Positions 2,141 through 38,600 of a stretch of DNA of 64,000 nucleotides are shown here, in pieces; the stretch's first letter is position 1; every line of letters starts with the position of its first letter. A program made the translations under genes and the position numbers. The stretch is taken from positions 263,572 to 327,571 of the forward strand of contig CAWIAU010000001.1 of NCBI GenBank assembly GCA_963834265.1, written 5' to 3'. A model generated the notes under the pieces. That model was given only the letters and a program-made list of their open reading frames with translations. It did no database searches and was not told where the DNA came from. The stretch comes from an uncultured bacterium. Lineage in GTDB: Bacteria; Patescibacteriota; Saccharimonadia; Saccharimonadales; 2-12-FULL-41-12.

Positions 2141-2285
2141 AGTCCGAATGGCTTGACGTGGGTCTCTATGAGTCTCTCTGAAATAGTCCATTTTGTTCGT
2201 TAAAAATTTAGATAGTGCAAATCAACGTCAGTTTTTGAATTTGTTTTTTGAATGTCAGTTTACTGACGCTAAGAATTAAATTCTT

Positions 2286-3754
<1,469 letters not shown>

Positions 3755-4837: not shown

Positions 4838-5103
4838 AGTTTCTACTAAAAATTTTTAGATAATTTTATTCTCATTTGCAATAACTTCTCGCAAAAACAG
4901 TTTATCTTTTATTAATCGTTTCGGTGATATTGTGCGGAAAGTAACTTTACCCTTAAAGTCCTTGTACTTGATGGGTATTTGACCATTTCTTTTTAAGGCG
5001 CTAGATATAAGGCTAACTTTACGCGATAGTGTGGGATCCTTGCCATAATTATCATTGGCATCAAAGTCTCTACTGAAAATTTTTAGATGATCTTTATTCT
5101 CAT
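4648..5103 (-). repeat. tandem duplication, 2 x 228 bp (~90% identity)
   Basis: Segment 4676-4875 aligns with 4904-5103 at an offset of 228 bp. The unit covers the 3' third of the HNH gene. Confidence 0.8.
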
Positions 5104-5368
5104 GGCAGTTCTTGCAAAGAGTCGTTAAGTTGGCAAATGTATTACTGCCACCCAAACTCAAAGGTGTCTTATGGTCTACGGTAAGCTCATAATTTTTACC
5201 GCAACTTGTGCATCTATGTCCATCACGTTCCAACACCTTTTGACGAATAGTATCCCAGTAGCCACCTTTCGTAAGTCCTTTACCCTCTACGGGTTGCGTC
5301 CAAATATTAGACGAACTTTTTTCTGAAGCTATAAGGGTCTGCTTTTTTACTGCTGGCTTTGTGGCCAT
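4856..5368 (-). CDS. HNH endonuclease
   Basis: RDGHRCTSCGKNYELTVDHKTPLSLGGSNTFANLTTLCKNCHENK matches the HNH (His-Asn-His) signature with Cys pairs. A basic C-terminal module (IPIKYKDFKGKVTFRTISPKRL) is probably DNA-binding. Confidence 0.85.
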   Translation of the reverse strand: MATKPAVKKQTLIASEKSSSNIWTQPVEGKGLTKGGYWDTIRQKVLERDGHRCTSCGKNYELTVDHKTPLSLGGSNTFANLTTLCKNCHENKDHLKIFSRDFDANDNYGKDPTLSRKVSLISSALKRNGQIPIKYKDFKGKVTFRTISPKRLIKDKLFLREVIANENKII

Positions 5369-8056: not shown

Positions 8057-8133
8057 TGGTGGGCGATGAGGGACTCGAACCTCCGACCTCGTCATTATCA
8101 GTGACGCGCTCTAACCAGCTGAGCTAATCGCCC
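8057..8133 (-). tRNA. tRNA-Ile (anticodon GAU), CCA encoded
   Basis: Hand-folded cloverleaf: acceptor GGGCGAT/ATCGCCC, D arm GCTC-AGCTGGTTA-GAGC, anticodon arm CGTCA-CTGATAA-TGACG, T arm GGAGG-TTCGAGT-CCCTC, then ACCA. Confidence 0.93.
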
Positions 8134-8496: not shown

Positions 8497-8573
8497 TGGT
8501 GGAGCGACGGGGACTCGAACCCCGGACCCCCTGCTTGCAAAGCAGGTGCTCTAGCCAACTGAGCTATCGCCCC
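8497..8573 (-). tRNA. tRNA-Ala (anticodon UGC), CCA encoded
   Basis: Cloverleaf: GGGGCGA/TCGCTCC with the G3-U70 identity pair, anticodon arm CCTGC-TTTGCAA-GCAGG, T arm CGGGG-TTCGAGT-CCCCG. Confidence 0.95.
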
Positions 8574-8774
8574 TCGTACCAAATATAGCTGTAATTGGGG
8601 TCTTAAGCCCAAAGTTACCTCAGTAATTCTACAGAAAAACCTCTGATACCACAAGGTAAGTCAATGGGAAGGTGGTCCAGGTGTTAAATTATATGCGCAG
8701 TATAACTAATTTATGCTTACCAGCCTAAATTGTAACAGCTACCAAACTGTAGTAATTTTGGCATCACAAAATGC

Positions 8775-8803
8775 TTGACCGCCCCTGTTATTCTTGCTAA
8801 GCT
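8775..8803 (+). promoter_or_regulatory. candidate promoter for the 23S-5S unit
   Basis: TTGACC (8775-8780), a 17-nt spacer, then TAAGCT (8798-8803) with a TGc extension. It shares the cTTGACC -35 with the 16S promoter. Confidence 0.45.
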
Positions 8804-9102
8804 ATAGGTTACCTTGAGTTTAGGCCCGAGATTTAGTTTCTAGACCTCCAGCGTAAACTTCAGGTTCAAGCAGTTAAGGGTGAGATTATTACCTTGTGCT
8901 CATAAGAATCCGGAGTTTTGTAACTTAAAAATTTGGCTGACATTAGTTTTAAGAGTTTACTAGAGCAGTAAACTCGAAATATAAACGGCATTGTTATTGG
9001 TTATTACCAATAACTAGTCAAATGCATAATGTAATGAGTCGCCGAAGGCAATCATCAAATCAAAGCGTTTTCGAATTTACTTCGAAAAAAGCTTTTCTTC
9101 TT

Positions 9103-9160
9103 AGGAAAAAGAGCAGCGCAGCGATGAGAAAAAACCTGAGGTTTTGTCTCATTATGTTCG
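9103..9160 (+). repeat. structured motif copy A (immediately upstream of the 23S 5' end)
   Basis: AGGAAAAAGAGCAGC-GCAGCGATGAGAAAAAACCTGAGGTTTTGTCTCATTATGTTCG. Homologous to copies B and C. Confidence 0.7.
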
Positions 9161-9439
9161 TAAAAAGTTAATTAAGCGCACAAAATGGATGCCTTGACGT
9201 AAGATACCGATGAAGGACGTAGAAGGCTGCGAAAAGCTTCGGGGAGCTGCCAATCAAGCTTTGAACCGAAGATATCCGAATGGGGAAACCCGGGTAGAGT
9301 AATGTCTATTCACCCGTAATTGAATTCATAGATTACGTGGCGGTAACCGTGGGAACTGAAACATCTTAGTACCACGAGGAAGAGAAAGTAAACAACGATT
9401 CCGGAAGTAGTGGCGAGCGAAACCGGAATAGCCCAAACC

Positions 9440-9655
9440 TTTTATTACTTTCGCACTCTTCACTCCGTGATTAAGCAATGAGAATTGCTGGTCCGTAGTG
9501 ATGAGTGTGAATAAGCTGGTAGGCGAATGTATAAGAGGGGTTGTGACATCACAAAAACCTTTTGTGGAAGTCCGGATTTATCCGGGTTTCTGCATAAGGG
9601 AGCAGGATCTACCATGTCCTGCATAAGGTTACAAATTGCTGAGCAAGTAGAACAG
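9440..9655 (+). other. 23S domain I expansion (~170 nt more than E. coli)
   Basis: About 215 nt lie between conserved GCGAAaccGGaatAGCCCA and GGAAAGacagGcc. My recalled E. coli alignment has about 45 nt there. Confidence 0.55.
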
Positions 9656-11040
9656 TTTGGAAAGACAGGCCAGAGACGGTGATAGCCCGGTATATTAAGT
9701 TTCAGCAACCTTATAATTTGTTTTGTCGAGTAAGTCGGGGCACGAGAAACCTTGACCGAATCCGGGACGACCACGTCCCAAGGCTAAATATATCTTACGA
9801 TCGATAGTGTACAAGTACCGTGAGGGAAAGGTTAAAAGAACCCCGTGAGGGGAGTGAAATAGATCCTGAAATTATGTGCGTACAAGGACTCGGAGCGGCT
9901 TTAGGGCTGTGACGGGGTGCTTTTTGTAGAACGATCCAACGAGTTACTGATATGTGCAAGCGTAAGTTATCTGACGGACGCGTAGTGAAAGCGAGCCTGA
10001 ATAGGGCGTGGAGATTTATCTCTTTAGTACATGTTAGTAGACCCGAAACCAAGTGACCTATCCATGGGCAGGTTGAAGCGTCGGTAAAACGACGTGGAGG
10101 ACCGAACCGTAGGGTGTTGCAAAACCCCCGGATGACCTGTGGATAGAGGTGAAATGCCAATCGAACTTGGAGATAGCTGGTTCTCCTCGAAATAGCTTTA
10201 GGGCTAGCGTTATGTTGTAGCAAGTGGGGGTAGAGCTCTGTTTCGGAATGGGGCCCGCAAGGGTACCCACCCTTGACAAACTACGAATACCATTTGTGTA
10301 ATCATGGCAGTTAGAACGTCGGTGCTAAGATCGGCGCTCGAAAGGGAAACAGCCCAGACCATCAGCTAAGGTCCCTAAATATACACTCAGTGGGAAACGA
10401 GGTGAGATTTCTTAAACAATGAGGATGTTGGCTTAGAAGCAGCCATTCATTTAAAGAGTGCGTAACAGCTCACTCATCAAGAGATCTTGCGCGGAAAATG
10501 TAACGGGGCTCAAGTGTATTACCGAAGCTATGGGTTCATATTTATATGAGCGGTAGAGGAGCGTTCCTCTCTGCGTTGAAGTGGAACTGTGAGGTTCTGT
10601 GGAGCGTGAGGAAGTGAGAATGTTGGAATGAGTAACCATAAGGCAGGTGAGAATCCTGCCCACCGAAAGAGCGAGGTTTCCTGGGCCACGATAATCGTCC
10701 CAGGGTTAGCCGGGCCTAAGCCGAGGCGCGTAGCGTAGGCGATGGACAACGGGTTAATATTCCCGTGCCGGCTGTGAATTGTTTGAAGTGCGCGGCATGT
10801 TAGCAAGAGCGGGTTCATGGTTATATCCGTCTAAACAGCGTAACAACTGTGAATGAAACGGTCTTTACTGATCGAATTCTTGTGAGGGTGCTGACCAGAA
10901 AAGCTTTCAAACGCGTGTTCACGGTTGACCGTACCGCAAACCGACACAGGTGCTCAGGTCGAGAAGACCAAGGTGTACGAGTGATTCTTCGTTAAGGAAC
11001 TCGGCAATACAGCGACCGTAACTTCGGGATAAGGTCTGCC

Positions 11041-11301
11041 CCGTCACAGTGTTTATCACTGCGGCTTGAGAATGTAGCGCCAGTTTTCTTTTCAGAAAAC
11101 AACAGAAGCGATGATGAGTTTTTAACTTCTCTAAAGTCGCCCTGTATAAACGAGTAAAAAAGATTCTGTCTGATACTTCAATTCCTTCGCCGGAAGCTTC
11201 GGCTTTGGCATGGAAGCGATAGTGTCCGATAGAATTTCATTGAGATTGAGAAGAAAGCTGACCTCTATAAGCACATACTTTGGTAAGTACTGTGACGGGG
11301 C
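11041..11301 (+). other. 23S helix-63-region expansion / possible intervening sequence (~260 nt)
   Basis: Closed by an 11-bp stem CCGTCACAGTG (11042-11052) / TACTGTGACGG (11289-11299). It replaces a helix of about 45 nt between GGGAtAAGG.. and ..AACTGTTTAccAAAAACACAG. Confidence 0.6.
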
Positions 11302-12181
11302 CGCAGCTAAGGAACCCATGGAACTGTTTACCAAAAACACAGGTCTCTGCTAACACGAAAGTGGATGTATAGGGGCTGACTCCTGCCCGGTGCCGGAAGG
11401 TTAAGGGGAGCGCTTTACGGTGCGAACTGAAGCCCCGGTGAACGGCGGCGGTAACTATAACCGTCCTAAGGTAGCGAAATTCCTTGTCAGGTAAGTTCTG
11501 ACCTGCACGAATGGAGTAATCATATGGGTACTGTCTCAACGAAGAGCTCGGTGAAAGTGCATTGACGGTAAAGATGCCGTCTGTCCGCAGCAGGACGAAA
11601 AGACCCTGTGCAGCTTTACTACAGCTTGACATTGAATCGAGCTGCAACATGTGTAGTATAGTTGGGAGACTTTGAAGCCCGGACGCTAGTCCGGGTGGAG
11701 TCGTTAGTGAAATACCAACCTTGTTGTAGTTTTATTCTTACCGAACCCTTTATGGGTAAATAAGATATTTATTTTGTTTATCTATACAGGGTTCGGAACC
11801 GTGTCTGGTGGGTAGTTTAACTGGGGCGGTTGCCTCCTAAAGAGTAGCGGAGGCGTTCAAAGGTTGGCTAGTTACGGATGGAAATCGTAATGATAGTGCA
11901 TACGCATAAGCCAGCTTGACTGTGAGGCCTACAAGCCAAGCAGGGACGAAAGTCGGAGTAAGTGATCCGCTGTCCTTACATTTATGTAAATGAACGTGGG
12001 ATCGACAGCGCAAACGGATAAAAGTTACGCCAGGGATAACAGGCTTATAGCGCCCAATAGTTCACATAGACGGCGCTGTTTGGCACCTCGATGTCGGCTC
12101 ATCTCATCCTGGAGGGGGAGCACCTTCCAAGGGTCCGGCTGTTCGCCGGTTAAAGAGGTACGTGAGCTGGGTTCAGAACGT

Positions 12182-12595
12182 AAATTACATTGCGTTCTAC
12201 TCTCGAGAGGGAGTAATGTGCTGATTAACATCGAATCATTAGCACTAAAACTAACTAAAATCGGTGAAACCCTATCTGGATTCGAACGTTCTAGAGGGCG
12301 ATACCGAGGGTAAGCGCCAGTGTAATGCTGGTTTGATCCCGTAGAGACTGATCTGGAAAACTTGCCTAGTAAGCATGTGGAACAGTGAGAATGATTGCTT
12401 TTGCAAGATTTCATACGTTAGCCCCTTAACTATTACAACTTAGGTTAAGGGTGAAGATATAGTCCACGCCAATAGTAATATTGGATAAAGCTCGCTCTTT
12501 GTCTTAATAGGGAAAAGGAGCAGCCCGACAAAATGTATTCCATTTTGCCGGCGCGATGAGGAAAAACCGCAGGTTGTTCCTCATGAGTGTACGTG
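12182..12595 (+). mobile_element. group I intron (414 nt, no ORF) inserted after 23S U2593 (E. coli numbering)
   Basis: The exon junction restores GGGTTCAGAACGT|CGTGAGACAGTTCGG. The 5' exon ends in U and the intron ends in G (12595). The internal guide GCGTTCT (12192-12198) pairs with exon AGAACGT, including a U-G pair. An S-element AAGATATAGTCC-like core (GAAGATATAGTCC ~12453-12466) and a P7 partner AGAGACTGA are present. Confidence 0.85.
12509..12595 (+). repeat. structured motif copy B (3' terminal domain of the group I intron)
   Basis: AGGGAAAAGGAGCAGC-[26-nt hairpin]-GCGCGATGAGGAAAAACCGCAGGTTGTTCCTCATGAGTGTACG. Confidence 0.7.
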
Positions 12596-13050
12596 CGTGA
12601 GACAGTTCGGTTTATATCCGCTGTGGACGTCAGGAAATTTGAGAGGATTTGCCCCTAGTACGAGAGGACCGGGGTGAACGCACCGCTGGTGTACCAATTG
12701 TCATACCAATGGCATCGTTGGGTAGCTATGTGCGGAACAGATAAGCGCTGAAAGCATATTAAGCGCGAAACTGACCTCAAGATTAGATTTCCCTATGAGG
12801 GCCCTGATAGACGATCAGGTTGATAGGTACACGGTGTACGCATAGCAATATGTTTAGCCTAAGTATACTAATAGCCCCACAGATTTTTTGTGAACCATGA
12901 GACCAATTTACTTCGGTGAGTTGATCTCATGGGAATGTATTTGGCTAGTTATTTGTAGTAACTAATAAACAACGTCCGTTTATATTAACTTTTGTCAGTC
13001 ATATCGACACCACATGGACACCGAGTGAGTGAGACTTACGCCTCCCTCCC

Positions 13051-13162
13051 TCGGTGCCCATGGCGCGAGGGAAACACCTGTTCCCATCCCGAACACAGCA
13101 GTTAAGCCTCGCAGCGGTTACAATACTTGGGTTTTAACCCTGGGAAAATAGCACGGTGCCGA
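13051..13162 (+). rRNA. rrf: 5S ribosomal RNA
   Basis: Helix I TCGGTGCC/GGTGCCGA. Conserved CCCATCCCGAACACAGCAGTTAAGCC (loop B/helix III region). 112 nt. Confidence 0.9.
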
Positions 13163-13173
13163 TTTATATAGAA

Positions 13174-13198
13174 GGAGACCTGAAAAGGTCTCTTTTTA
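13174..13198 (+). terminator. rho-independent terminator after 5S
   Basis: GGAGACC (13174-13180), loop TGAAAA, GGTCTCT (13187-13193, last position unpaired), then T5. Confidence 0.75.
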
Positions 13199-13361
13199 TA
13201 TAAATACGCGTCTTTGTGCTCACGCCAACGGCGGGACCTGCACGGCTTGTCCACCCCCAAATTCTGAAGCGAGAAGAGAGGAAATACCTCTATTTCGAGT
13301 ATCAAGGTTTTGGTGCTGGGTGCCGAATTTTGCGCTAAAGCCACCTGAGAGGGTGGCTTTT

Positions 13362-13443
13362 CGCTTTAATGAGAGAACCGGGATAGGTTCTCTCATCGCG
13401 CGGCGTGTGCGGATGAACCGCCCACTCCGGCTGCTCTTTCCTG
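13362..13443 (-). repeat. structured motif copy C (inverted, 200 nt downstream of 5S)
   Basis: The minus strand reads CAGGAAAGAGCAGC-[28-nt hairpin]-GCGCGATGAGAGAACCTATCCCGGTTCTCTCATTAAAGCG. Confidence 0.7.
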
Positions 13444-13506
13444 ACAGCGGAACCAAAAAGAGGGAAGTAAATTCCCACTTTTTGTAATTTATATTTTGAA
13501 ATCACC

Positions 13507-13815
13507 TTAAGTGCGGGGAGAAGGATTCTCTCTGTCGTGGAGTATTCTACTTCCTTCATCCACAAAATGGTCGAGTCTTGCTAATAAATCACGTCCTTCT
13601 CCAGTGGCTGTGCAATCAGGCAAATGAGTTTGATTCTCCAAAGCTCCCCCTACTACTCTAGATGGAACACCGCTTGTATTTCCTCGATCGTCTTCAGTTC
13701 TATACGCTTGAATAGCTAGACCACCCATATCACCGTTCGTGTTTTCAGGTAGAATGTCTGACTCTATTAAATCGCGTCTGATTTCTTCATCACCCAAAAG
13801 TCTTTTTCTAAACAT
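13507..13815 (-). CDS. hypothetical protein (102 aa)
   Basis: ATG at 13815 (MFRKRLLGDEEIRRDL..). The longer 128-aa ORF adds an implausible Phe/Cys/Tyr-rich N-terminus. Divergent from the Fic gene. No family recognised. Confidence 0.4.
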   Translation of the reverse strand: MFRKRLLGDEEIRRDLIESDILPENTNGDMGGLAIQAYRTEDDRGNTSGVPSRVVGGALENQTHLPDCTATGEGRDLLARLDHFVDEGSRILHDRENPSPRT

Positions 13816-14063
13816 AGTTACATAATAGCAGAAATAATTTTTGATTTGTTCTCCCAAGAAGCGGAAGCAAAAAATAGTGAAATAAATTCCCAATATCCTG
13901 CGATTTATAATGTTAAGAGATTATTCCGTAATTTAGCAAGAGTGTAATAAGTTTGTCACTTATTCTAGAATTAGGGTTGATTTTAGAATAAAGGCGTTTA
14001 TAATTCTATTTGAATAGACCAACCCCAAGGCTTATTCCACACGAAACTATCAATATTAGAATT

Positions 14064-15158
14064 ATGAAAAAACCACCATTTACACCGCCTCTATTACCAA
14101 TAGCTTTAGATATTTCTTCATCAATACCTTTAATAACGAGTGCTCGAGACGCAGTAGCACGTTATGATGAAGCCGTTAACAGATTGCCAAATCCTATAAT
14201 AATACGCCGTACTCTTGAAACAAAAGAAGCAGTTCTTAGCTCAAGAATCGAAGGAACACAAGCAACTTTTGAGGAAGTTTTAGAGTTCGATGCGGAGCAA
14301 ATAGAAACAGAAGAAAATGAGAAACAGCGAGATTATCGAGAAATATTTAATTATAGACAAGTTATTGATAGGGGGAGAGACATACTAAAAACTCGTCCAC
14401 TTGATGAAAATGTTTTCAAAGAGTTACACAAAGGGTTGTTAAATTCAGTTAGGGGAAAAAATAAGAACCCAGGAGAATTTCGAACACATCAGGTACATAT
14501 CGGTCCGCCAGGAGCAACAGTAGAAGAAGCTGCTTACGTACCTCCTCTACACACGGAAATACCTAACTTAATATCAAACCTTGCGAAATATATGAATAAT
14601 GATGACCAGCCAGATCGCTTAGTACAGGCCGCAATTATGCACTATCAATTTGAAGCTATACATCCGTTTGCAGATGGCAATGGGCGCGTTGGGAGAATAC
14701 TAATTCCTTTATACCTGTATGAAAAAAAAATTACAGCTCATCCAAATTTATACGTTTCTGAATTTTTGGAAAGGCACAGAAGGGATTACTACGAAAAGCT
14801 GAACGGCGTAAGCGAACGAGACGAATGGATAGAATGGATACAATTCTTCTTACGGGCTGTTCGCGAACAAGCTACTATTTCAAAGGCTCGTGTCGATAAT
14901 GTTGAAAAACTCTATAAATCTCTTCATGAACGACTACCAGAATTTAACTCAATTTATGCCTCATCATTTCTAGAGGCTTTATTTAGTCAGCCGACTTTTA
15001 CGCCACTTACCCTTGGTAAAATAGCGAAAATTCAAAATAATCAGACGACCTATAATCTAGTACAAAAATTTGTAAAAGCAGGATTAATTTCAGAGTTAAC
15101 ACCTGAACGAGAAAGGAATAAATTGTATTTCTTTGACCCATTATTTGAGATTTTATAG
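14064..15158 (+). CDS. Fic family protein (class II, with intramolecular inhibitory helix)
   Basis: HPFADGNGRVGRIL matches the Fic motif HxFx(D/E)GNGRxxR. The N-terminal SSRIEGT matches (S/T)xxxE(G/N). The C-terminal part resembles a winged helix. ATG 14064 (MKKPPFTPPLLP) is preferred over TTG 14010. Confidence 0.9.
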   Translation: MKKPPFTPPLLPIALDISSSIPLITSARDAVARYDEAVNRLPNPIIIRRTLETKEAVLSSRIEGTQATFEEVLEFDAEQIETEENEKQRDYREIFNYRQVIDRGRDILKTRPLDENVFKELHKGLLNSVRGKNKNPGEFRTHQVHIGPPGATVEEAAYVPPLHTEIPNLISNLAKYMNNDDQPDRLVQAAIMHYQFEAIHPFADGNGRVGRILIPLYLYEKKITAHPNLYVSEFLERHRRDYYEKLNGVSERDEWIEWIQFFLRAVREQATISKARVDNVEKLYKSLHERLPEFNSIYASSFLEALFSQPTFTPLTLGKIAKIQNNQTTYNLVQKFVKAGLISELTPERERNKLYFFDPLFEIL

Positions 15159-15292: not shown

Positions 15293-15496
15293 ATGGCTAA
15301 AGATGATAAAAAAATTAGGATGGATCATAAGGGGCCGCCGCCGGCTTTTGGGTTCTATGTTTTAACTTATATTGGGGCGGCTGTTCACTTCGTTGGCAAT
15401 GTGGATGGGCTTTGGAATATCATAGTGGCACTAGCCAAAGCTGCTGTCTGGCCGGCATTTCTCATCAATAGAATCTTCGAACTCCTAAGAATCTAG
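15293..15496 (+). CDS. small membrane protein (67 aa, 2 predicted TM)
   Basis: RBS GGTGGAGGA lies 9 nt upstream of the ATG. Two hydrophobic segments are FGFYVLTYIGAAVHFVG and IIVALAKAAVWPAFLI. Confidence 0.5.
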   Translation: MAKDDKKIRMDHKGPPPAFGFYVLTYIGAAVHFVGNVDGLWNIIVALAKAAVWPAFLINRIFELLRI

Positions 15497-15949
15497 GTTT
15501 AATTCTTCTTCACTAGGTTTTTGGAACATTTTTGACCATTTCTCTAAGTCTTCTCTCTTGATTTGAAGAGTACCGGATCGGGATTCTGCACGGTTGGATA
15601 TTCTTTCCCAAAGTTCGTCCAAGCTTGCTTCTACGAATACTACTTTTGTAGCGACTCCTAGCTTTCCGGCTTCTTGTCTGTAGTGATCTCGCTCTGCTTT
15701 AGACCAAAACCCGAAGTCCAGGATTGCACTCTTGCCAGTTCTCAGCGCCTCTTTTGCCTGATTCCACAGAAGTTCTTCGGTGGGATAGCGAAATTTATCG
15801 CTTTGCTCGCGGTCTAGATTATTGCCATGATGTGCAAGTATCCACTCATCCGGAGTGAATCGAATAGCAGACTGATTTCGTTCTAGTTCTTTTGCTTCGG
15901 TAGTTTTACCCGAACCGGGCAATCCAACCATCAAATATAATGTTGTCAT
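15485..15949 (-). CDS. P-loop ATPase/kinase (AAA_33-like)
   Basis: Walker A GLPGSGKTT sits at the N-terminus. At 154 aa it is typical of small standalone nucleotide or zeta-like kinases. Confidence 0.8.
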   Translation of the reverse strand: MTTLYLMVGLPGSGKTTEAKELERNQSAIRFTPDEWILAHHGNNLDREQSDKFRYPTEELLWNQAKEALRTGKSAILDFGFWSKAERDHYRQEAGKLGVATKVVFVEASLDELWERISNRAESRSGTLQIKREDLEKWSKMFQKPSEEELNLDS

Positions 15950-32600: not shown

Positions 32601-35600
32601 GTAGCTCCGCGGTCCCTACTTTTACTGTAGATTCCCAGGGACGGCTGACAATGGCTGGTAATACAACCTTAGCTAATGCGGGACTGCAGAATTCAAGTTT
32701 GACCTTAACAGCGGGCAATGGACTAGCCGGGGGAGGAAGCGTTGCTTTAGGCGCATCTACAAGCCTTAACGTTCAGTATGGTGCTATCGCGAATACATCT
32801 GTCCAAGGCAATACTCAGATTACTTGTACGCCTGGTGCTGGTAATTTGTCCGGAGGGGGTACGGTTATAACACTGGGCTCAGGTGGAGCATGTGGTGCTA
32901 TTAATACGAATGCAGCGGTAAATTTTGCTACAAGTGTTACAACTCCACTACTTACGTCCATTGGTCCGATTACAATACAATCTGATCCCAGTGTTGGTAG
33001 TGACGACATAATATTCAATAGTGCCGGTAGCGAGATTTTTCGTTTACTTGAAACAGGGGAATTTAAGTTTGAACGCGGCTCAAACGATGCGTTCTTTTCT
33101 ATTGCAACTCCTAGTGGCGCGCCTGCTACTTATACTTTTTCCGGCGTATCCGGAACTGTCCTTACTAGTTCAAATTTCAGCAGTAGCTTAGACAGTTCTT
33201 ATGTGAACATAGGCGAATCCCCGTCAGCTGGCGACATTAACGGATCATTTGGGGGAGGTTTAAGCATTGGATCAGACGCAGTTGCTTTAGGGACAGACAC
33301 TACAGGCAACTATCTGGCTACACTTAGCGGAGGCACAGGATTGACAGTTACTGGATCTGGCAGCGAAAGTGCTGCGGTGACTTTAGCGCTCGATGTAATA
33401 ACTACAGGAACAACAGCTACTACAAACTCTAACTCTGGCTTAGAACTCGGTAGTGACGGGCTAAGATTGCTGGGGGGTTGTGCTTCTAATGAGATACTCA
33501 AATGGAATGGATCAACTTGGGCTTGCGCTGCAGATAATGGTACCGGAGCTGCTCCCACACTTCAAGAGAATTATGACAATGATCCCAATGGAGCGAATGT
33601 GATAATTGGATTGTCCAATGTTGACGGGGGTATATTTATTCGTGATAACGCGTCGCCAATTGGCGGTAACTTATTTGCCGTACAAAGCGACGGAGGTAGC
33701 ACTACTTATTTAGGTATCACTGCAAGTGGATCCAGCGTATCGGGAACTTTCTCGGCGACCGGTGCTATTAATGGCGCCACCATTTCTGGTGGCTCTCTAA
33801 ACTCTACTTCGGTTAATGGTCTTAGTGTTTCGGGGGGCATTATAACTGTGGGTACCTGGAATGGTACTGCTCTAACAGACTCTTATGTTTCTGATACTCT
33901 AACCTCAAGTATTTTCATAGGTTCAGGAAGTACATCAAATGCTGTAGATTTAGCTAGTGCCGAAGTAGCCGGCAGCCTGGCCGACGGAAATGTCTCAGAT
34001 ACCTTAACCATAGGTGCTTCCGGCAGCGTGGCTGACGGAGCTTTAAGTGTCAACGTGACTAAACTGGGGACTGCCATAGACCTGGCTACAGCTGAGGTAG
34101 CCGGTAATCTGAGAGCTAATAATCTGCAGAGTGCCGGAGCCGACCTTGGCGCGACTAATGTTAACATTGACCTGAGCAATACCAACGGAAGCTTCGTCAC
34201 CAACTTAACCGTAGACGGTACTATTACTGCCGCTACCTTTGCCGGCAACCTGACAGGTAATGTCACCGGCAACGCTTCAACCGCTACCGCTCTGGCTAAC
34301 AATCCGACAGATTGCGGAGCCAACCAGTTCGCCATTACCATTGCCGCCAGCGGTAACCTGACCTGCGCCGCGCTGACTGATGCCGATATACCGAATAACA
34401 TTACAATTGATCTGGCTGCCAACGCCACCACAGCTGTTAATCTGGTTGGTTCCGGCAGTACCACCAATGCCGTAGATCTGGCTACAGCTGAGGTATCCGG
34501 CAACTTACGGGCTAACAACCTGCAGAACGCCGCCGCCGACCTGGGAGGAGCTGACGTCAACATTAACCTCAGCAATACCAACGGAAGCTTCGTGACTAAT
34601 CTGACGGTTGACGGCACCATCACCGCCGCCACCTTTGCCGGCGCTCTTACGGGCAATGTCACCGGTAATGTCACCGGCAACGCTTCAACCGCTACCGCTC
34701 TGGCTAACAATCCGACAGATTGCGGAGCCAACCAGTTCGCCATTACCATTGCCGCCAGCGGTAACCTGACCTGCGTGTCCTTAACAGATCTGGATATACC
34801 GAACAACATTACAATTGATCTGGCTGCCGCCGCTACCGCGCTGGCTAACAACCCCACTGACTGTAGCGCTGATACTTACGCTACTACTATCGCTGCCAGC
34901 GGTAACCTGACTTGTGCTTCCATTACCGACGCTTCATTATCTGCTAACGTCACTAAACTGGGCAGTAGTATCCAAAACAGTGAAGTAGACGACGACCTGA
35001 CTATTAGTGCTTCCGGCAGCGTGGCTGACGGAGCTTTAAGTGTCAACGTGACTAAACTGGGGACTGCCATAGACCTGGCTACAGCTGAGGTAGCCGGTAA
35101 TCTGAGAGCTAATAATCTGCAGAGTGCCGGAGCCGACCTTGGCGCGACTAATGTTAACATTGACCTGAGCAATACCAACGGAAGCTTCGTCACCAACTTA
35201 ACCGTAGACGGTACTATTACTGCCGCTACCTTTGCCGGCAACCTGACAGGTAATGTCACCGGCAACGCTTCAACCGCTACCGCTCTGGCTAACAATCCGA
35301 CAGATTGCGGAGCCAACCAGTTCGCCATTACCATTGCCGCCAGCGGTAACCTGACCTGCGCCGCGCTGACTGATGCCGATATACCGAATAACATTACAAT
35401 TGATCTGGCTGCCAACGCCACCACAGCTGTTAATCTGGTTGGTTCCGGCAGTACCACCAATGCCGTAGATCTGGCTACAGCTGAGGTATCCGGCAACTTA
35501 CGGGCTAACAACCTGCAGAACGCCGCCGCCGACCTGGGAGGAGCTGACGTCAACATTAACCTCAGCAATACCAACGGAAGCTTCGTGACTAATCTGACGG

Positions 35601-38600
35601 TTGACGGCACCATCACCGCCGCCACCTTTGCCGGCGCTCTTACGGGCAATGTCACCGGTAATGTCACCGGCAACGCTTCAACCGCTACCGCTCTGGCTAA
35701 CAATCCGACAGATTGCGGAGCCAACCAGTTCGCCATTACCATTGCCGCCAGCGGTAACCTGACCTGCGTGTCCTTAACAGATCTGGATATACCGAACAAC
35801 ATTACAATTGATCTGGCTGCCGCCGCTACCGCGCTGGCTAACAACCCCACTGACTGTAGCGCTGATACTTACGCTACTACTATCGCTGCCAGCGGTAACC
35901 TGACTTGTGCTTCCATTACCGACGCTTCATTATCTGCTAACGTCACTAAACTGGGCAGTAGTATCCAAAACAGTGAAGTAGACGACGACCTGACTATTAG
36001 TGCTTCCGGCAGCGTGGCTGACGGAGCTTTAAGTGTCAACGTGACTAAACTGGGGACTGCCATAGACCTGGCTACAGCTGAGGTAGCCGGTAATCTGAGA
36101 GCTAATAATCTGCAGAGTGCCGGAGCCGACCTTGGCGCGACTAATGTTAACATTGACCTGAGCAATACCAACGGAAGCTTCGTCACCAACTTAACCGTAG
36201 ACGGTACTATTACTGCCGCTACCTTTGCCGGCAACCTGACAGGTAATGTCACCGGCAACGCTTCAACCGCTACCGCTCTGGCTAACAATCCGACAGATTG
36301 CGGAGCCAACCAGTTCGCCATTACCATTGCCGCCAGCGGTAACCTGACCTGCGCCGCGCTGACTGATGCCGATATACCGAATAACATTACAATTGATCTG
36401 GCTGCCAACGCCACCACAGCTGTTAATCTGGTTGGTTCCGGCAGTACCACCAATGCCGTAGATCTGGCTACAGCTGAGGTATCCGGCAACTTACGGGCTA
36501 ACAACCTGCAGAACGCCGCCGCCGACCTGGGAGGAGCTGACGTCAACATTAACCTCAGCAATACCAACGGAAGCTTCGTGACTAATCTGACGGTTGACGG
36601 CACCATCACCGCCGCCACCTTTGCCGGCGCTCTTACGGGCAATGTCACCGGTAATGTCACCGGCAACGCTTCAACCGCTACCGCTCTGGCTAACAATCCG
36701 ACAGATTGCGGAGCCAACCAGTTCGCCATTACCATTGCCGCCAGCGGTAACCTGACCTGCGTGTCCTTAACAGATCTGGATATACCGAACAACATTACAA
36801 TTGATCTGGCTGCCGCCGCTACCGCGCTGGCTAACAACCCCACTGACTGTAGCGCTGATACTTACGCTACTACTATCGCTGCCAGCGGTAACCTGACTTG
36901 TGCTTCCATTACCGACGCTTCATTATCTGCTAACGTCACTAAACTGGGCAGTAGTATCCAAAACAGTGAAGTAGACGACGACCTGACTATTAGTGCTTCC
37001 GGCAGCGTGGCTGACGGAGCTTTAAGTGTCAACGTGACTAAACTGGGGACTGCCATAGACCTGGCTACAGCTGAGGTAGCCGGTAATCTGAGAGCTAATA
37101 ATCTGCAGAGTGCCGGAGCCGACCTTGGCGCGACTAATGTTAACATTGACCTGAGCAATACCAACGGAAGCTTCGTCACCAACTTAACCGTAGACGGTAC
37201 TATTACTGCCGCTACCTTTGCCGGCAACCTGACAGGTAATGTCACCGGCAACGCTTCAACCGCTACCGCTCTGGCTAACAATCCGACAGATTGCGGAGCC
37301 AACCAGTTCGCCATTACCATTGCCGCCAGCGGTAACCTGACCTGCGCCGCGCTGACTGATGCCGATATACCGAATAACATTACAATTGATCTGGCTGCCA
37401 ACGCCACCACAGCTGTTAATCTGGTTGGTTCCGGCAGTACCACCAATGCCGTAGATCTGGCTACAGCTGAGGTATCCGGCAACTTACGGGCTAACAACCT
37501 GCAGAACGCCGCCGCCGACCTGGGAGGAGCTGACGTCAACATTAACCTCAGCAATACCAACGGAAGCTTCGTGACTAATCTGACGGTTGACGGCACCATC
37601 ACCGCCGCCACCTTTGCCGGCGCTCTTACGGGCAATGTCACCGGTAATGTCACCGGCAACGCTTCAACCGCTACCGCTCTGGCTAACAATCCGACAGATT
37701 GCGGAGCCAACCAGTTCGCCATTACCATTGCCGCCAGCGGTAACCTGACCTGCGTGTCCTTAACAGATCTGGATATACCGAACAACATTACAATTGATCT
37801 GGCTGCCGCCGCTACCGCGCTGGCTAACAACCCCACTGACTGTAGCGCTGATACTTACGCTACTACTATCGCTGCCAGCGGTAACCTGACTTGTGCTTCC
37901 ATTACCGACGCTTCATTATCTGCTAACGTCACTAAACTGGGCAGTAGTATCCAAAACAGTGAAGTAGACGACGACCTGACTATTAGTGCTTCCGGCAGCG
38001 TGGCTGACGGAGCTTTAAGTGTCAACGTGACTAAACTGGGGACTGCCATAGACCTGGCTACAGCTGAGGTAGCCGGTAATCTGAGAGCTAATAATCTGCA
38101 GAGTGCCGGAGCCGACCTTGGCGCGACTAATGTTAACATTGACCTGAGCAATACCAACGGAAGCTTCGTCACCAACTTAACCGTAGACGGTACTATTACT
38201 GCCGCTACCTTTGCCGGCAACCTGACAGGTAATGTCACCGGCAACGCTTCAACCGCTACCGCTCTGGCTAACAATCCGACAGATTGCGGAGCCAACCAGT
38301 TCGCCATTACCATTGCCGCCAGCGGTAACCTGACCTGCGCCGCGCTGACTGATGCCGATATACCGAATAACATTACAATTGATCTGGCTGCCAACGCCAC
38401 CACAGCTGTTAATCTGGTTGGTTCCGGCAGTACCACCAATGCCGTAGATCTGGCTACAGCTGAGGTATCCGGCAACTTACGGGCTAACAACCTGCAGAAC
38501 GCCGCCGCCGACCTGGGAGGAGCTGACGTCAACATTAACCTCAGCAATACCAACGGAAGCTTCGTGACTAATCTGACGGTTGACGGCACCATCACCGCCG

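Follow-up and report, generated by a model that had tools for sequence, protein, structure and literature searches.

The window, that is, the whole 64-kb stretch of DNA analysed, carries a 23S-5S rRNA unit whose 23S gene is interrupted by a group I intron and around which three copies (A, B, and C) of one folded RNA repeat are placed. These copies are members of an undescribed repeat family of Saccharibacteria, which are tiny symbiotic bacteria. All three had been located in the original prediction, and a covariance model (R1) built from 20 copies from other genomes, with the window sequence left out of training, matched exactly these three and nothing else in the window; with filters off, the next full-length match in the 64 kb scored just 11 bits (E 0.18). 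Units of the family are about 75-100 nt long and consist, in order, of a conserved purine tract GGGAAAAGAGCAGC, a first hairpin (H1), 1 nt, and a second hairpin (H2). In each of copies A, B, and C, an upstream pyrimidine strand pairs with the purine tract (H0). The features of the unit are as follows.

8994-9027, + strand: 5' strand of the long-range 23S processing stem (34-nt inverted repeat, 85% complementary)
9068-9088, + strand: hairpin UUUUCGAA-UUUAC-UUCGAAAA ('UUYAY' pentaloop) upstream of copy A
9091-9114, + strand: H0 of copy A; 9091-9100 pairs with 9105-9114 of the purine tract in the minimum-free-energy fold
9102-9156, + strand: copy A, short form (R1 match 44.2 bits, E 9e-11); purine tract 9103-9113, CAGC, mini-H1, H2 9124-9152
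12182-12595 (414 nt), + strand: group I intron in the 23S, no ORF (RF00028 38.2 bits, E 2.7e-7, below that family's gathering score of 50)
12490-12505, + strand: 5' strand of copy B H0, GCUCGCUCUUUGUCUU, pairing with the purine tract in folds
12508-12588, + strand: copy B, long form (R1 match 69.9 bits, E 5e-18); purine tract 12509-12519, H1 12525-12551, H2 12556-12584
12895-12932, + strand: hairpin directly 3' of the 23S end, with base AUGAGA/UCUCAU as in H2
12935-12968, + strand: 3' strand of the 23S processing stem, pairing with 8994-9027
13175-13192, 13162-13205, and 13340-13365: terminator-like hairpins between 5S and copy C
13365-13444, - strand: copy C, 'type 2' subtype (R1 match 50.0 bits, E 2e-12); purine tract 13443-13431, H1 13430-13402, H2 13396-13369 with loop UAUCCC
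13462-13476, no assigned strand: bidirectional terminator-like hairpin GGGAA-UUUAC-UUCCC with UCUUUUU behind it, directly 5' of copy C on the minus strand

Copy A sits 5-8 nt before helix 1 of the 23S rRNA, the pairing of which begins at about 9158 (the Rfam 23S model starts at 9161). An optional hairpin had been proposed for the motif; it exists in the family but not in its full form in copy A, where it has shrunk to a stem of two GC pairs (only G9116-C9122 and C9117-G9121 remain), closing a GCA triloop. An ortholog of copy A is present in the close relative L116 (1021-1075, 42.4 bits, 86% flank identity), and the 9068-9088 hairpin also occurs in this orthologous leader; its pentaloop type recurs upstream of copy C and in H1 of many copies. 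Copy A appears to be a short form that became fixed long ago in the 23S leader, and its H0 probably goes back to the opposite arm of what was an inverted doublet. The 12895-12932 hairpin, the 5' strand of which can pair alternatively with the 3' strand of copy A H2, could either belong to the proximal processing helix or be a relic in which just H2 is left. Only four ATGAG..CTCAT frames occur in the 64 kb, all of them inside this rRNA unit.

The intron is inserted exactly at E. coli 23S position 2593, as mapped against the E. coli 23S; U12181 precedes its 5' splice site and G12595 is its terminal G. Five homologues were found in metagenomes, with one scoring 50.6 bits against RF00028 and one carrying a LAGLIDADG ORF. 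An 11-nt tail (12585-12595) follows H2 of copy B and closes on the terminal G, and the H0 5' strand resembles the complement of a purine tract. In six intron homologues, this pyrimidine run is kept and the motif lies 10-12 nt ahead of the 3' splice site, the introns of L122-L126 having the same element at the same place as copy B. Copy B would appear to be a fixed part of the intron 3' tail that moves with the intron. The earlier idea that the module itself is intron-derived is not supported, since over 100 copies are found elsewhere than in introns. Copy C belongs to type 2 and sits past a terminator, between convergent transcription units; type 2 copies with a terminator hairpin upstream and a convergent gene downstream were also found in L002, L050, L056, L063, L073, L078, L083, L104, and L108.

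Fold and membership of the repeat family

A pattern scan recovered at least 114 true copies in about 86 metagenome-assembled genomes (MAGs) or assemblies among the matches listed (at least 120 loci); the hosts among those matches were nearly all Candidatus Saccharibacteria, with three Dormibacterota. Additional copies were matched by the covariance model, and a search of other sources with R1 returned 116 full copies from 98 sources, so that the scan of relatives suggested in the original prediction did uncover further copies. Density is roughly 20-30 copies per Mb. Consistent with the initial failure to assign the motif, Rfam 15 contains no matching family, none of the known ribozyme families matches, and a literature search found no published description of the repeat.

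The stem variants first quoted for the three copies (ATGAGA/TCTCAT, ATGAGGAA/TTCCTCAT, and ATGAGAGAACC/GGTTCTCTCAT) are correct. Covariation would be insignificant from these three sequences alone and becomes significant with the family alignment, in which 96.4% of cells are paired and double-sided changes affect 19 of 21 pairs, a result equalled in none of 500 shuffles. RNAalifold independently recovered the same helices, which bears out the view of a structured module with covarying stems. On the sense strand, G.U pairs number 36 and A.C pairs 18. Selection acts on the fold of the sense strand.

H1 is variable and dispensable and can shrink to a 2-bp mini-hairpin, leaving the purine tract and H2 as the core. 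H2, a hairpin of 12 bp (AUGAGAAAAACC / GGUUUGUCUCAU), hardly varies and keeps an A.G mismatch. Conservation of the core is deep and includes unpaired positions and both A.G and A.C mismatches, and the core is almost invariant among genomes whose 23S identity is only 78%. Moreover, the purine tract is a mirror image of the H2 5' strand and covaries with it (rho 0.77, Fisher 1e-5), which, together with the 1-nt gap between H1 and H2, fits a fold-back triple helix. H0 is only weakly general across the family, and the motif has sharp sequence boundaries.

Genomic settings of the copies

Copies of the repeat occupy RNA that is discarded or not translated as protein, and they are almost always co-directional with the downstream gene. 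They are found in the 5' leaders of tRNAs and the leader of the 23S, within 23S intervening sequences, between the genes of ribosomal-protein operons, and in the 3' tail of the group I intron lineage at position 2593 (L2593). A co-oriented copy lies 3-14 nt upstream of 27 of 71 tRNAs, and two cases are convergent. The motif-bearing tRNA units, mostly monocistronic and with a strong intrinsic terminator right behind the tRNA, run in the order TAnAAT, box cACCCCTGTT, 10-30 nt, motif, tRNA, and terminator. In motif-free tRNAs, the same promoter box is merely 2-12 nt from the tRNA, indicating that the motif is an insert of about 100 nt that a discarded leader can have or lack. A decayed copy was found upstream of tRNA-Pro in L059.

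Operon copies were found ahead of the genes for S7, L4, L2, S3, L16, S17, S14, L13, S9, L10, EF-Tu, and RpoC. They lie within a mini-ORF that runs from the upstream stop/start overlap to the start codon of the following gene, a context seen in about 15 copies in ribosomal-protein operons and absent from all three copies in the window. In the 23S, the motif forms the 3' edge of two intervening sequences, one in L116 and the other in L102, where it lies at the helix-45 site. The claim that copies end at processing junctions therefore holds in part: they stop 3-14 nt before tRNAs, at these two 3' edges, and 10-12 nt before the 3' splice site. Much of this follows trivially from very short leaders and spacers, however, and a role in cleavage or ligation is unsupported.

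Possible spread, retention, and possible roles

With a probability of about one half, the family is primarily a spreading, structured repeat resembling ERIC, MIRU, or REPIN elements. Occupancy of sites is patchy and varies between genomes, such that different spacers of the same ribosomal-protein cluster are filled in L026, L035, and L120; H1 types and subtypes are genome-specific; and neighbouring copies are near-identical within L042, L035, and L071. Further, an inverted doublet of the motif, 194-200 nt long, lies within the 23S of L116 close to E. coli position 361, a site that is empty in the window although the flanks are 86-92% identical. Patchy occupancy, this filled/empty pair, and the genome-specific H1 together point to spreading. 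Such a repeat could spread through insertion or duplication, possibly in the form of an inverted doublet, with subsequent gene conversion, and would persist wherever normal RNA processing removes or neutralises the inserted copy, whether through RNase P, trimming of leaders and intervening sequences, splicing, or ribosomes reading through the bridging mini-ORF. Antisense insertions within transcription units would be selected against, and the host may have put some of the fixed copies to use.

Several observations count against spreading. The window and L116 are the one filled/empty pair found, no mobilising enzyme was identified, and single copies are without terminal inverted repeats and with no clear target duplication seen. 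Conservation of the core far exceeds that usual for selfish bacterial repeats, suggesting a conserved cellular partner, and covariation of the purine tract with H2 implies a specific tertiary fold that a merely tolerated insertion would not need. Copies with differing H1 types are also kept at orthologous sites, including the tRNA-Arg leader (in L006, L045, L046, L069, and L109), the 23S leader of the window and L116, and the six introns, and they are strongly enriched beside genes of the translation apparatus. These same features (deep conservation including unpaired and mismatched positions, a possible triple helix of a kind known to resist exonucleases, retention at orthologous sites, and enrichment at highly expressed genes), along with the reduction of the core to purine tract and H2 and the functional RNA just downstream (a tRNA, 23S helix 1, exon 2, 23S following an intervening sequence, or a Shine-Dalgarno site), lend some weight to a tentative second reading, in which a dedicated cis-acting host module defines or protects the 5' boundary of the following RNA. 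Such a module might block exonucleases as a nuclease-resistant knot, be recognised by a processing endonuclease, or be a small self-cleaving ribozyme; duplication of something useful, and not selfish spread, would in that case account for the number of copies. A host module is nonetheless difficult to reconcile with the coexistence of motif-bearing and motif-free tRNAs, as RNase P requires no such leader, with type 2 copies and L032, which have no downstream RNA to serve, or with the patchy occupancy and empty site. Additionally, the close spacing is largely forced by short leaders and spacers, ribosomes apparently traverse the element in operons, and no known ribozyme family matches it.

Other explanations fare considerably worse. 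The put RNAs of phage HK022 resemble the repeat in size and two-hairpin form. A processive antitermination or RNA-polymerase-binding leader of this type, or like boxA/boxB or the Bacillus EAR element, would help the polymerase to transcribe rRNA, tRNA, and long ribosomal-protein operons without stopping early; placement in the 23S leader and repeatedly inside such operons would suit it, as would upstream strands that often read as boxA-like (GCUCUUU). It is nevertheless very improbable, being counter-productive in monocistronic tRNA units that end in a strong intrinsic terminator and hard to square with type 2 copies facing convergent genes or with positions at intron and intervening-sequence ends. 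Even less credible is a promoter or other DNA-level transcription signal of the downstream gene: although the motif has sharp boundaries and stands upstream of highly expressed genes, freely covarying hairpins would be unexpected in a promoter, no -35/-10 match occurs inside the motif, and some tRNAs begin only 3-4 nt past it. Clear TAnAAT promoters and the conserved box instead lie upstream at variable distance, and the motif is also found between co-transcribed ribosomal-protein genes and inside an intron. The opposite orientation of copies A and C flanking 23S-5S had prompted the proposal that they served as the terminal inverted repeats of a segment once mobile or invertible, or that pairing of A with the complement of C closes the operon in read-through transcripts. 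This is just as hard to credit: the two are of different subtypes (short form and type 2) within a dispersed family of more than 100 copies, relatives sharing the intron (L122-L124) have no copy after the 5S, terminator-like hairpins intervene between 5S and C, and the 23S is bracketed by a separate stem (8994-9027/12935-12968) with a duplex energy of -41.2 kcal/mol.

Comparison with known systems

Considered as a spreading structured repeat, the family is most readily compared with dispersed elements of other bacteria. ERIC/IRU sequences are structured repeats confined to transcribed non-coding regions, vary in copy number, and are strongly conserved across species, with their function still unresolved; the Saccharibacteria repeat is likewise structured, transcribed, variable in number, and unusually well conserved. 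ERIC, however, consists of one imperfect palindrome, about 127 bp long and unrelated in sequence, and is found in Enterobacteria and Vibrio in either orientation, whereas the present repeat combines a purine tract with two hairpins, is almost always in sense orientation beside stable-RNA and ribosomal-protein genes, and extends across a class-level lineage. MIRUs similarly lie in intercistronic spacers, follow the orientation of the operon, and contain a small ORF that overlaps the flanking stop and start codons, but they are 40-100-bp tandem-repeat units lacking this hairpin architecture, and the Saccharibacteria repeat also occupies ORF-free sites in the leaders of tRNAs and rRNA, within intervening sequences, and inside an intron. 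REP, BIME, and REPIN sequences are hairpin-forming dispersed repeats that occur as singlets and inverted doublets, as here in the 23S of L116, and both within-genome homogenisation and a filled/empty site were seen for the present repeat. REPs differ in being 20-40 nt long, with a conserved GTAG-type foot, hundreds of copies per genome, and mobilisation by RAYT transposases; the Saccharibacteria repeat has no such foot, is 75-100 nt long, and numbers roughly 20-30 copies per Mb. The Correia/NEMIS elements of Neisseria are also transcribed and fold into long hairpins, with Correia elements cut by RNase III, but the Correia elements are bounded by terminal inverted repeats and by a TA target duplication.

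Individual settings have parallels of their own. Known 23S intervening sequences sit in helices of the 23S and are excised from the rRNA, and the insertions in L102 and L116 end in the motif. Copy B occupies the position of a 3'-terminal peripheral domain of group I introns, after P9 (GUAA loop) and before the terminal G, as do P9.x extensions; its frequent occurrence outside introns shows that it is not an intron-specific domain. Finally, the mirror-image covariation hints at a fold-back contact between the purine strand and an A/U-rich helix that may recall the ENE/MALAT1 triple helix and flaviviral xrRNAs, which use U.A-U triples or a ring-like pseudoknot and are viral or eukaryotic.

The element and its fold in the rRNA unit

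A motif made up of a purine tract, a variable hairpin (H1) and a near-invariant hairpin (H2) occurs three times around the 23S and 5S rRNA genes of the window, and the positions given for these copies in the original prediction were all correct. Copy A ends 5-8 nt 5' of 23S helix 1, copy B forms the final 87 nt of an intron in the 23S gene, and copy C lies on the minus strand past the 5S gene. The features concerned are as follows.

Features of the rRNA unit (window coordinates)
2285-3754, 16S rRNA gene
4856-5368, minus strand, HNH endonuclease gene within the 16S-23S spacer
8057-8133, strand opposite to the rRNA genes, tRNA-Ile gene
8497-8573, strand opposite to the rRNA genes, tRNA-Ala gene
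9102-9156, plus strand, copy A, in the 23S leader
9161-12892, 23S rRNA gene
12508-12588, plus strand, copy B, in the intron 3' tail
13050-13164, 5S rRNA gene
13365-13444, minus strand, copy C

The 16S and 23S genes are separated by 5.4 kb that include ORFs and, together with the opposite-strand tRNA genes, give a layout unusual for an operon. The window 23S gene shows 78% identity to a Saccharibacteria 23S gene versus 69% to that of E. coli, its leader and 5' domain share 86-92% identity with those of L116 (a motif-bearing locus from another source), and the window DNA itself is, as judged from rRNA similarity, from a Saccharibacteria lineage. Besides the intron, the 23S gene contains a 187-nt insertion relative to E. 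coli after position 278 (9444-9630) and further insertions of ~220 nt in total around E. coli positions 1703-1769 (11035-11319), none of which carries the motif. A hairpin directly 3' of the 23S gene (12895-12932) has the same AUGAGA/UCUCAU base as H2, and ATGAG..CTCAT frames number four in the whole window, all within the 23S-5S unit. Additionally, the 3' strand of H2 in copy A can pair with this trailer next to helix 1 (-13.2 kcal/mol). A match to the c-di-GMP-II riboswitch model inside the 23S gene (11656-11729; 29.8 bits versus a gathering score of 53.5, E 0.002) is probably due to chance.

Each copy folds as described in the original prediction, with an extra upstream pyrimidine strand (H0) that pairs with the purine tract. 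Across the family, the consensus order is aaGGGAAAAGAGCAGC, H1, one nucleotide, H2 and then U/A-A, and sequence information falls to zero 6 nt upstream and 3 nt downstream of the element. The H2 consensus is AUGAGAAAAACC-GUA-GGUUUGUCUCAU, with a conserved A.G mismatch, and H1, of about 11 bp, has a GC/GC closing stem and, close to its foot, a conserved A.C mismatch. H1 occurs as a few recurrent types, the minimal form being a 2-bp mini-hairpin; this short form is present in copy A and in L032, L102 and L116. In a model-based alignment, which is tilted towards the model's own structure, standard pairs occupied 96.4% of pair cells and 19 of the 21 pairs had changes on both sides; none of 500 shuffles matched the observed pairing and covariation, and slid controls gave 36-57%. 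RNAalifold independently returned identical helices. The sense strand is favoured, since G.U pairs exceed A.C pairs by 36 to 18.

The purine tract mirrors the 5' strand of H2, with which it covaries. The lengths of their A-runs follow n and n+1 (rho 0.77) and AGGAG co-occurs with GAGG (Fisher 1e-5), both statistics ignoring kinship between copies; the same covariation is seen in six intron copies. Watson-Crick pairing of the tract with the 3' strand of H2 was rejected because the variants are mirror images rather than complements. The pattern fits either a strand folded back onto a helix, for example in a triple helix, or a protein site with two-fold symmetry. As a family-wide third helix H0 was likewise rejected, being weakly enriched (mean duplex energy of -7.4 versus -6.5 kcal/mol in shuffles), and it is regarded here as what is left of an inverted partner. 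UUYAY-pentaloop hairpins (GGA-UUYAY-UCC) also recur: they form one H1 subtype, stand as separate hairpins upstream of copies A (9068-9088) and C (13462-13476), and are found in Dormibacterota loci and as terminator stems before a subtype of the element described below.

Distribution of the family

An exact search pattern, built from blocks common to the three copies, was run on a collection of species-representative genomes, where at least 120 loci matched. About 11 matches (Verrucomicrobia and others) were coding sequences and were discarded as false positives, leaving, among the pattern matches listed, at least 114 copies in about 86 assemblies, almost all of them Candidatus Saccharibacteria/Saccharimonadales and three Dormibacterota. 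The three Dormibacterota MAGs (L071, 4500-5105; L089; L105) carry a G+C-rich variant, which in L071 sits inside a larger conserved unit duplicated in tandem about 178 nt apart; these copies could stem from horizontal transfer or misbinning. It should be noted that loci were picked by the exact pattern, so that context frequencies are skewed to well-conserved copies, and that genes in these loci were called by simple ORF heuristics. A covariance model of 20 family copies, from which window sequence was excluded, recovered exactly copies B, C and A in the 64 kb window (69.9, 50.0 and 44.2 bits, respectively; E 5e-18 to 9e-11), and the next full-length match anywhere in the 64 kb, with filters off, scored 11 bits (E 0.18). 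The same model found 116 full copies across 98 sources, with additional ones in the rest of the loci. Extra matches in loci picked for having one copy give a rough density of 20-30 copies per Mb.

The original prediction had matched the motif to no known family, and Rfam 15 bears this out. With E up to 10 across window positions 8600-13800, the only match touching a copy was RNAI across copy C (20 bits, E 2.1), which is at chance level; no motif match reached the gathering score in 12 Saccharibacteria loci, and none occurred at E <=0.01 in five contigs with homologous introns (L122-L126). Literature searches, sequence strings included, returned no description of the element; most subscription journals lay outside the search and an earlier description is possible. 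Among viral contigs the single motif match was a chance one without hairpins, and a phage association was rejected on that ground.

Sites occupied by the element

In the sources, 27 of 71 tRNA genes have a co-oriented copy 3-14 nt upstream, and only two have a convergent one; a decayed copy is also present in the tRNA-Pro leader of L059. Motif-bearing tRNA units are monocistronic and run from TAnAAT through a conserved cACCCCTGTT box, a gap of 10-30 nt and the motif to the tRNA and its intrinsic terminator, and motif-less tRNAs have the same promoter box just 2-12 nt from the tRNA. RNase P removes the 5' leader of tRNAs. Because the same box adjoins motif-less tRNAs, the motif is an optional insert of ~100 nt in the leader removed by RNase P and not a promoter. 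A promoter role is moreover contradicted by information content, by -10 scans and by the promoters found further upstream, and a sigma-70 test found no conserved hexamer inside the motif or at a constant distance from it. Antitermination, by which transcription would be carried through the unit, is unlikely given that motif-bearing tRNA units end in strong terminators. Pairing between tRNA leader and trailer was not seen, the trailers being ordinary terminators. In Saccharibacteria tRNA upstream regions generally (L003-L094), TAnAAT is followed directly by the conserved cACCCCTGTT, a box signature that may represent a discriminator or an initial-transcribed element.

Copies also lie between the genes for S7, L4, L2, S3, L16, S17, S14, L13, S9, L10, EF-Tu, RpoC and SSB. 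About 15 of these operon copies are within a mini-ORF that extends from the old stop/start overlap to the next start codon, with a fresh Shine-Dalgarno site 3' of the element. In one ribosomal-protein cluster, different spacers are occupied in different genomes, and near-identical neighbouring copies are found in L042, L035 and L071.

In the rRNA unit, L116 carries an orthologue of copy A at the corresponding position, and the 130-nt insertion that L102 has at the helix-45 site terminates, at its 3' end, in a short-form copy. L116 also has the motif as an inverted doublet (130-322) inside the 23S gene. This insertion of 194-200 nt, close to E. coli position 361, has a hairpin fold of -101 kcal/mol and is likely an intervening sequence. 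The window is empty at this site, giving a filled/empty pair at which a possible TTG/TTTG duplication, and no more than that, was seen.

Copy B belongs to a 414-nt insertion located exactly after E. coli position 2593 of the 23S gene (12182-12595). The group I intron model RF00028 aligned to window positions 12172-12485 at 38.2 bits (E 2.7e-7; model positions 1-253), against a gathering score of 50, and scored 50.6 bits on the homologue L125 and 34-38 on the others. U12181, the last nucleotide of the upstream exon, can pair in P1, a candidate for which is exon AGAACGU with intron GCGUUCU, and G12595 is the last nucleotide of the insertion; a known rRNA site, intact exons, a 5'-splice-site U opposite a G in P1 and a terminal G together point to a group I intron. 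A scan of metagenomes for the motif followed by exon 2 yielded the five contigs L122-L126, all with homologous L2593 introns that end in the motif. The L126 intron has an open frame of 191 codons with a LAGLIDADG_1 match (E 3e-10), a predicted homing endonuclease gene. In the intron, copy B stands where a P9.x peripheral extension would be.

Copy C is one of the "type 2" copies, a subtype whose loop reads UAUCYC. In ten loci, type 2 copies are preceded by a terminator hairpin and face a convergent gene. The element itself does not resemble an intrinsic terminator, in which a G+C-rich hairpin runs directly into a U tract: the sense-strand H2 is followed by UA/AA and variable sequence, and a terminator scan flagged the hairpin at 13462-13476 and left copy C unflagged. 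A tblastn search with the 128-aa ORF adjoining copy C, for a conserved protein beside type 2 copies, returned no match. It had originally been proposed that copies A and C could be terminal inverted repeats of a formerly mobile or invertible 23S-5S segment or could pair in a read-through transcript. Both ideas are contradicted: no copy follows 5S in relatives that share the intron, terminator-like hairpins intervene between 5S and C, and the 23S has a separate processing stem of -41 kcal/mol. Adjoining the rRNA unit are a Fic/DOC-family gene (14010-15158) and an AAA_33/zeta-toxin-like kinase gene (15485-15949), a pair that recurs on a short contig of another sequencing run. Further along, at 18827-41272, lie two giant ORFs (2853 and 3863 aa) whose G+C content is 54-57% versus 40-48% nearby, and antisense ORFs of about 324 aa, one about every 993 nt (33883-39771), suggest long internal tandem repeats.

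Nature of the element

What can be said most safely is that the family is new, spans the lineage and consists of structured elements that act, or are under constraint, as RNA of the sense strand. The genomes of Saccharibacteria and other Patescibacteria are tiny, nearly all of their non-coding bases are expected to matter, and to our knowledge very little is known on their RNA biology. An element conserved over more than 80 species, found beside translation-apparatus genes as well as within rRNA genes and a mobile intron, is of interest under either of two readings. We put at about one half the probability that it is an ERIC/MIRU/REPIN-like repeat that spreads and evolves in concert, and that would survive in RNA which is either discarded by the cell or open to read-through. 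This reading accounts for where the copies lie, how patchily sites are occupied, the filled/empty pair, the doublet and the mini-ORFs. H1 types, for their part, are mostly uniform within a genome and differ between genomes even at orthologous sites, as in the tRNA-Arg leader of five species. A dedicated function as an exonuclease stop, endonuclease signal or ribozyme is a less probable alternative; the very deep conservation of the core, the retention of copies at orthologous sites, the enrichment at translation-apparatus genes and the covariation of the purine tract with H2 speak for it and against a purely selfish element. The close spacing to the downstream RNA is largely forced, because leaders and spacers are very short. 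In a more specific form, which we consider improbable, the element would be a new functional RNA class across Saccharibacteria, that is, a universal 5'-adjacent knot module with its tract folded into the H2 groove, providing an exonuclease block or protein- or self-directed cleavage upstream of tRNAs, 23S rRNA, rRNA fragments and ribosomal-protein cistrons, and recruited by a mobile group I intron as its 3'-terminal domain. If the element is functional, it would be a new signal for processing or stabilising RNA. If it is a selfish, spreading repeat, it would show a non-coding-RNA parasite surviving in a streamlined genome solely in thrown-away RNA and would account for part of this group's unusual rRNA insertions. 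The covariance model offers a direct annotation handle for these genomes, and deletion tests are feasible in cultivated, transformable Saccharibacteria.

Among known classes, a hammerhead ribozyme (CUGAUGA ... GAAA ... UH, three stems) was rejected, given that CGAUGAG of the motif lies inside a Watson-Crick helix and that GAAA and a three-way junction are absent, and no Rfam ribozyme family matched the motif in the window or 12 Saccharibacteria loci. Compared with MITEs, single copies lack terminal inverted repeats, their ends being GGGAAAAG... and ...GUCUCAU, and the L116 doublet has them by construction. REP/REPIN sequences are palindromes of 20-40 nt with a conserved 5' tetranucleotide, mobile as inverted doublets and associated with a RAYT gene; membership was rejected, as the unit here is 75-100 nt with two different hairpins and there is one true doublet in about 130 copies. 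The MIRU arrangement, an intercistronic position with a small ORF overlapping the flanking stop and start codons, is seen in the ribosomal-protein operon copies with mini-ORFs and is inapplicable to the three window copies, tRNA leaders and rRNA copies. The nearest analogues of the element are ERIC, MIRU, REP/REPIN and Correia elements and the intervening sequences of 23S rRNA.
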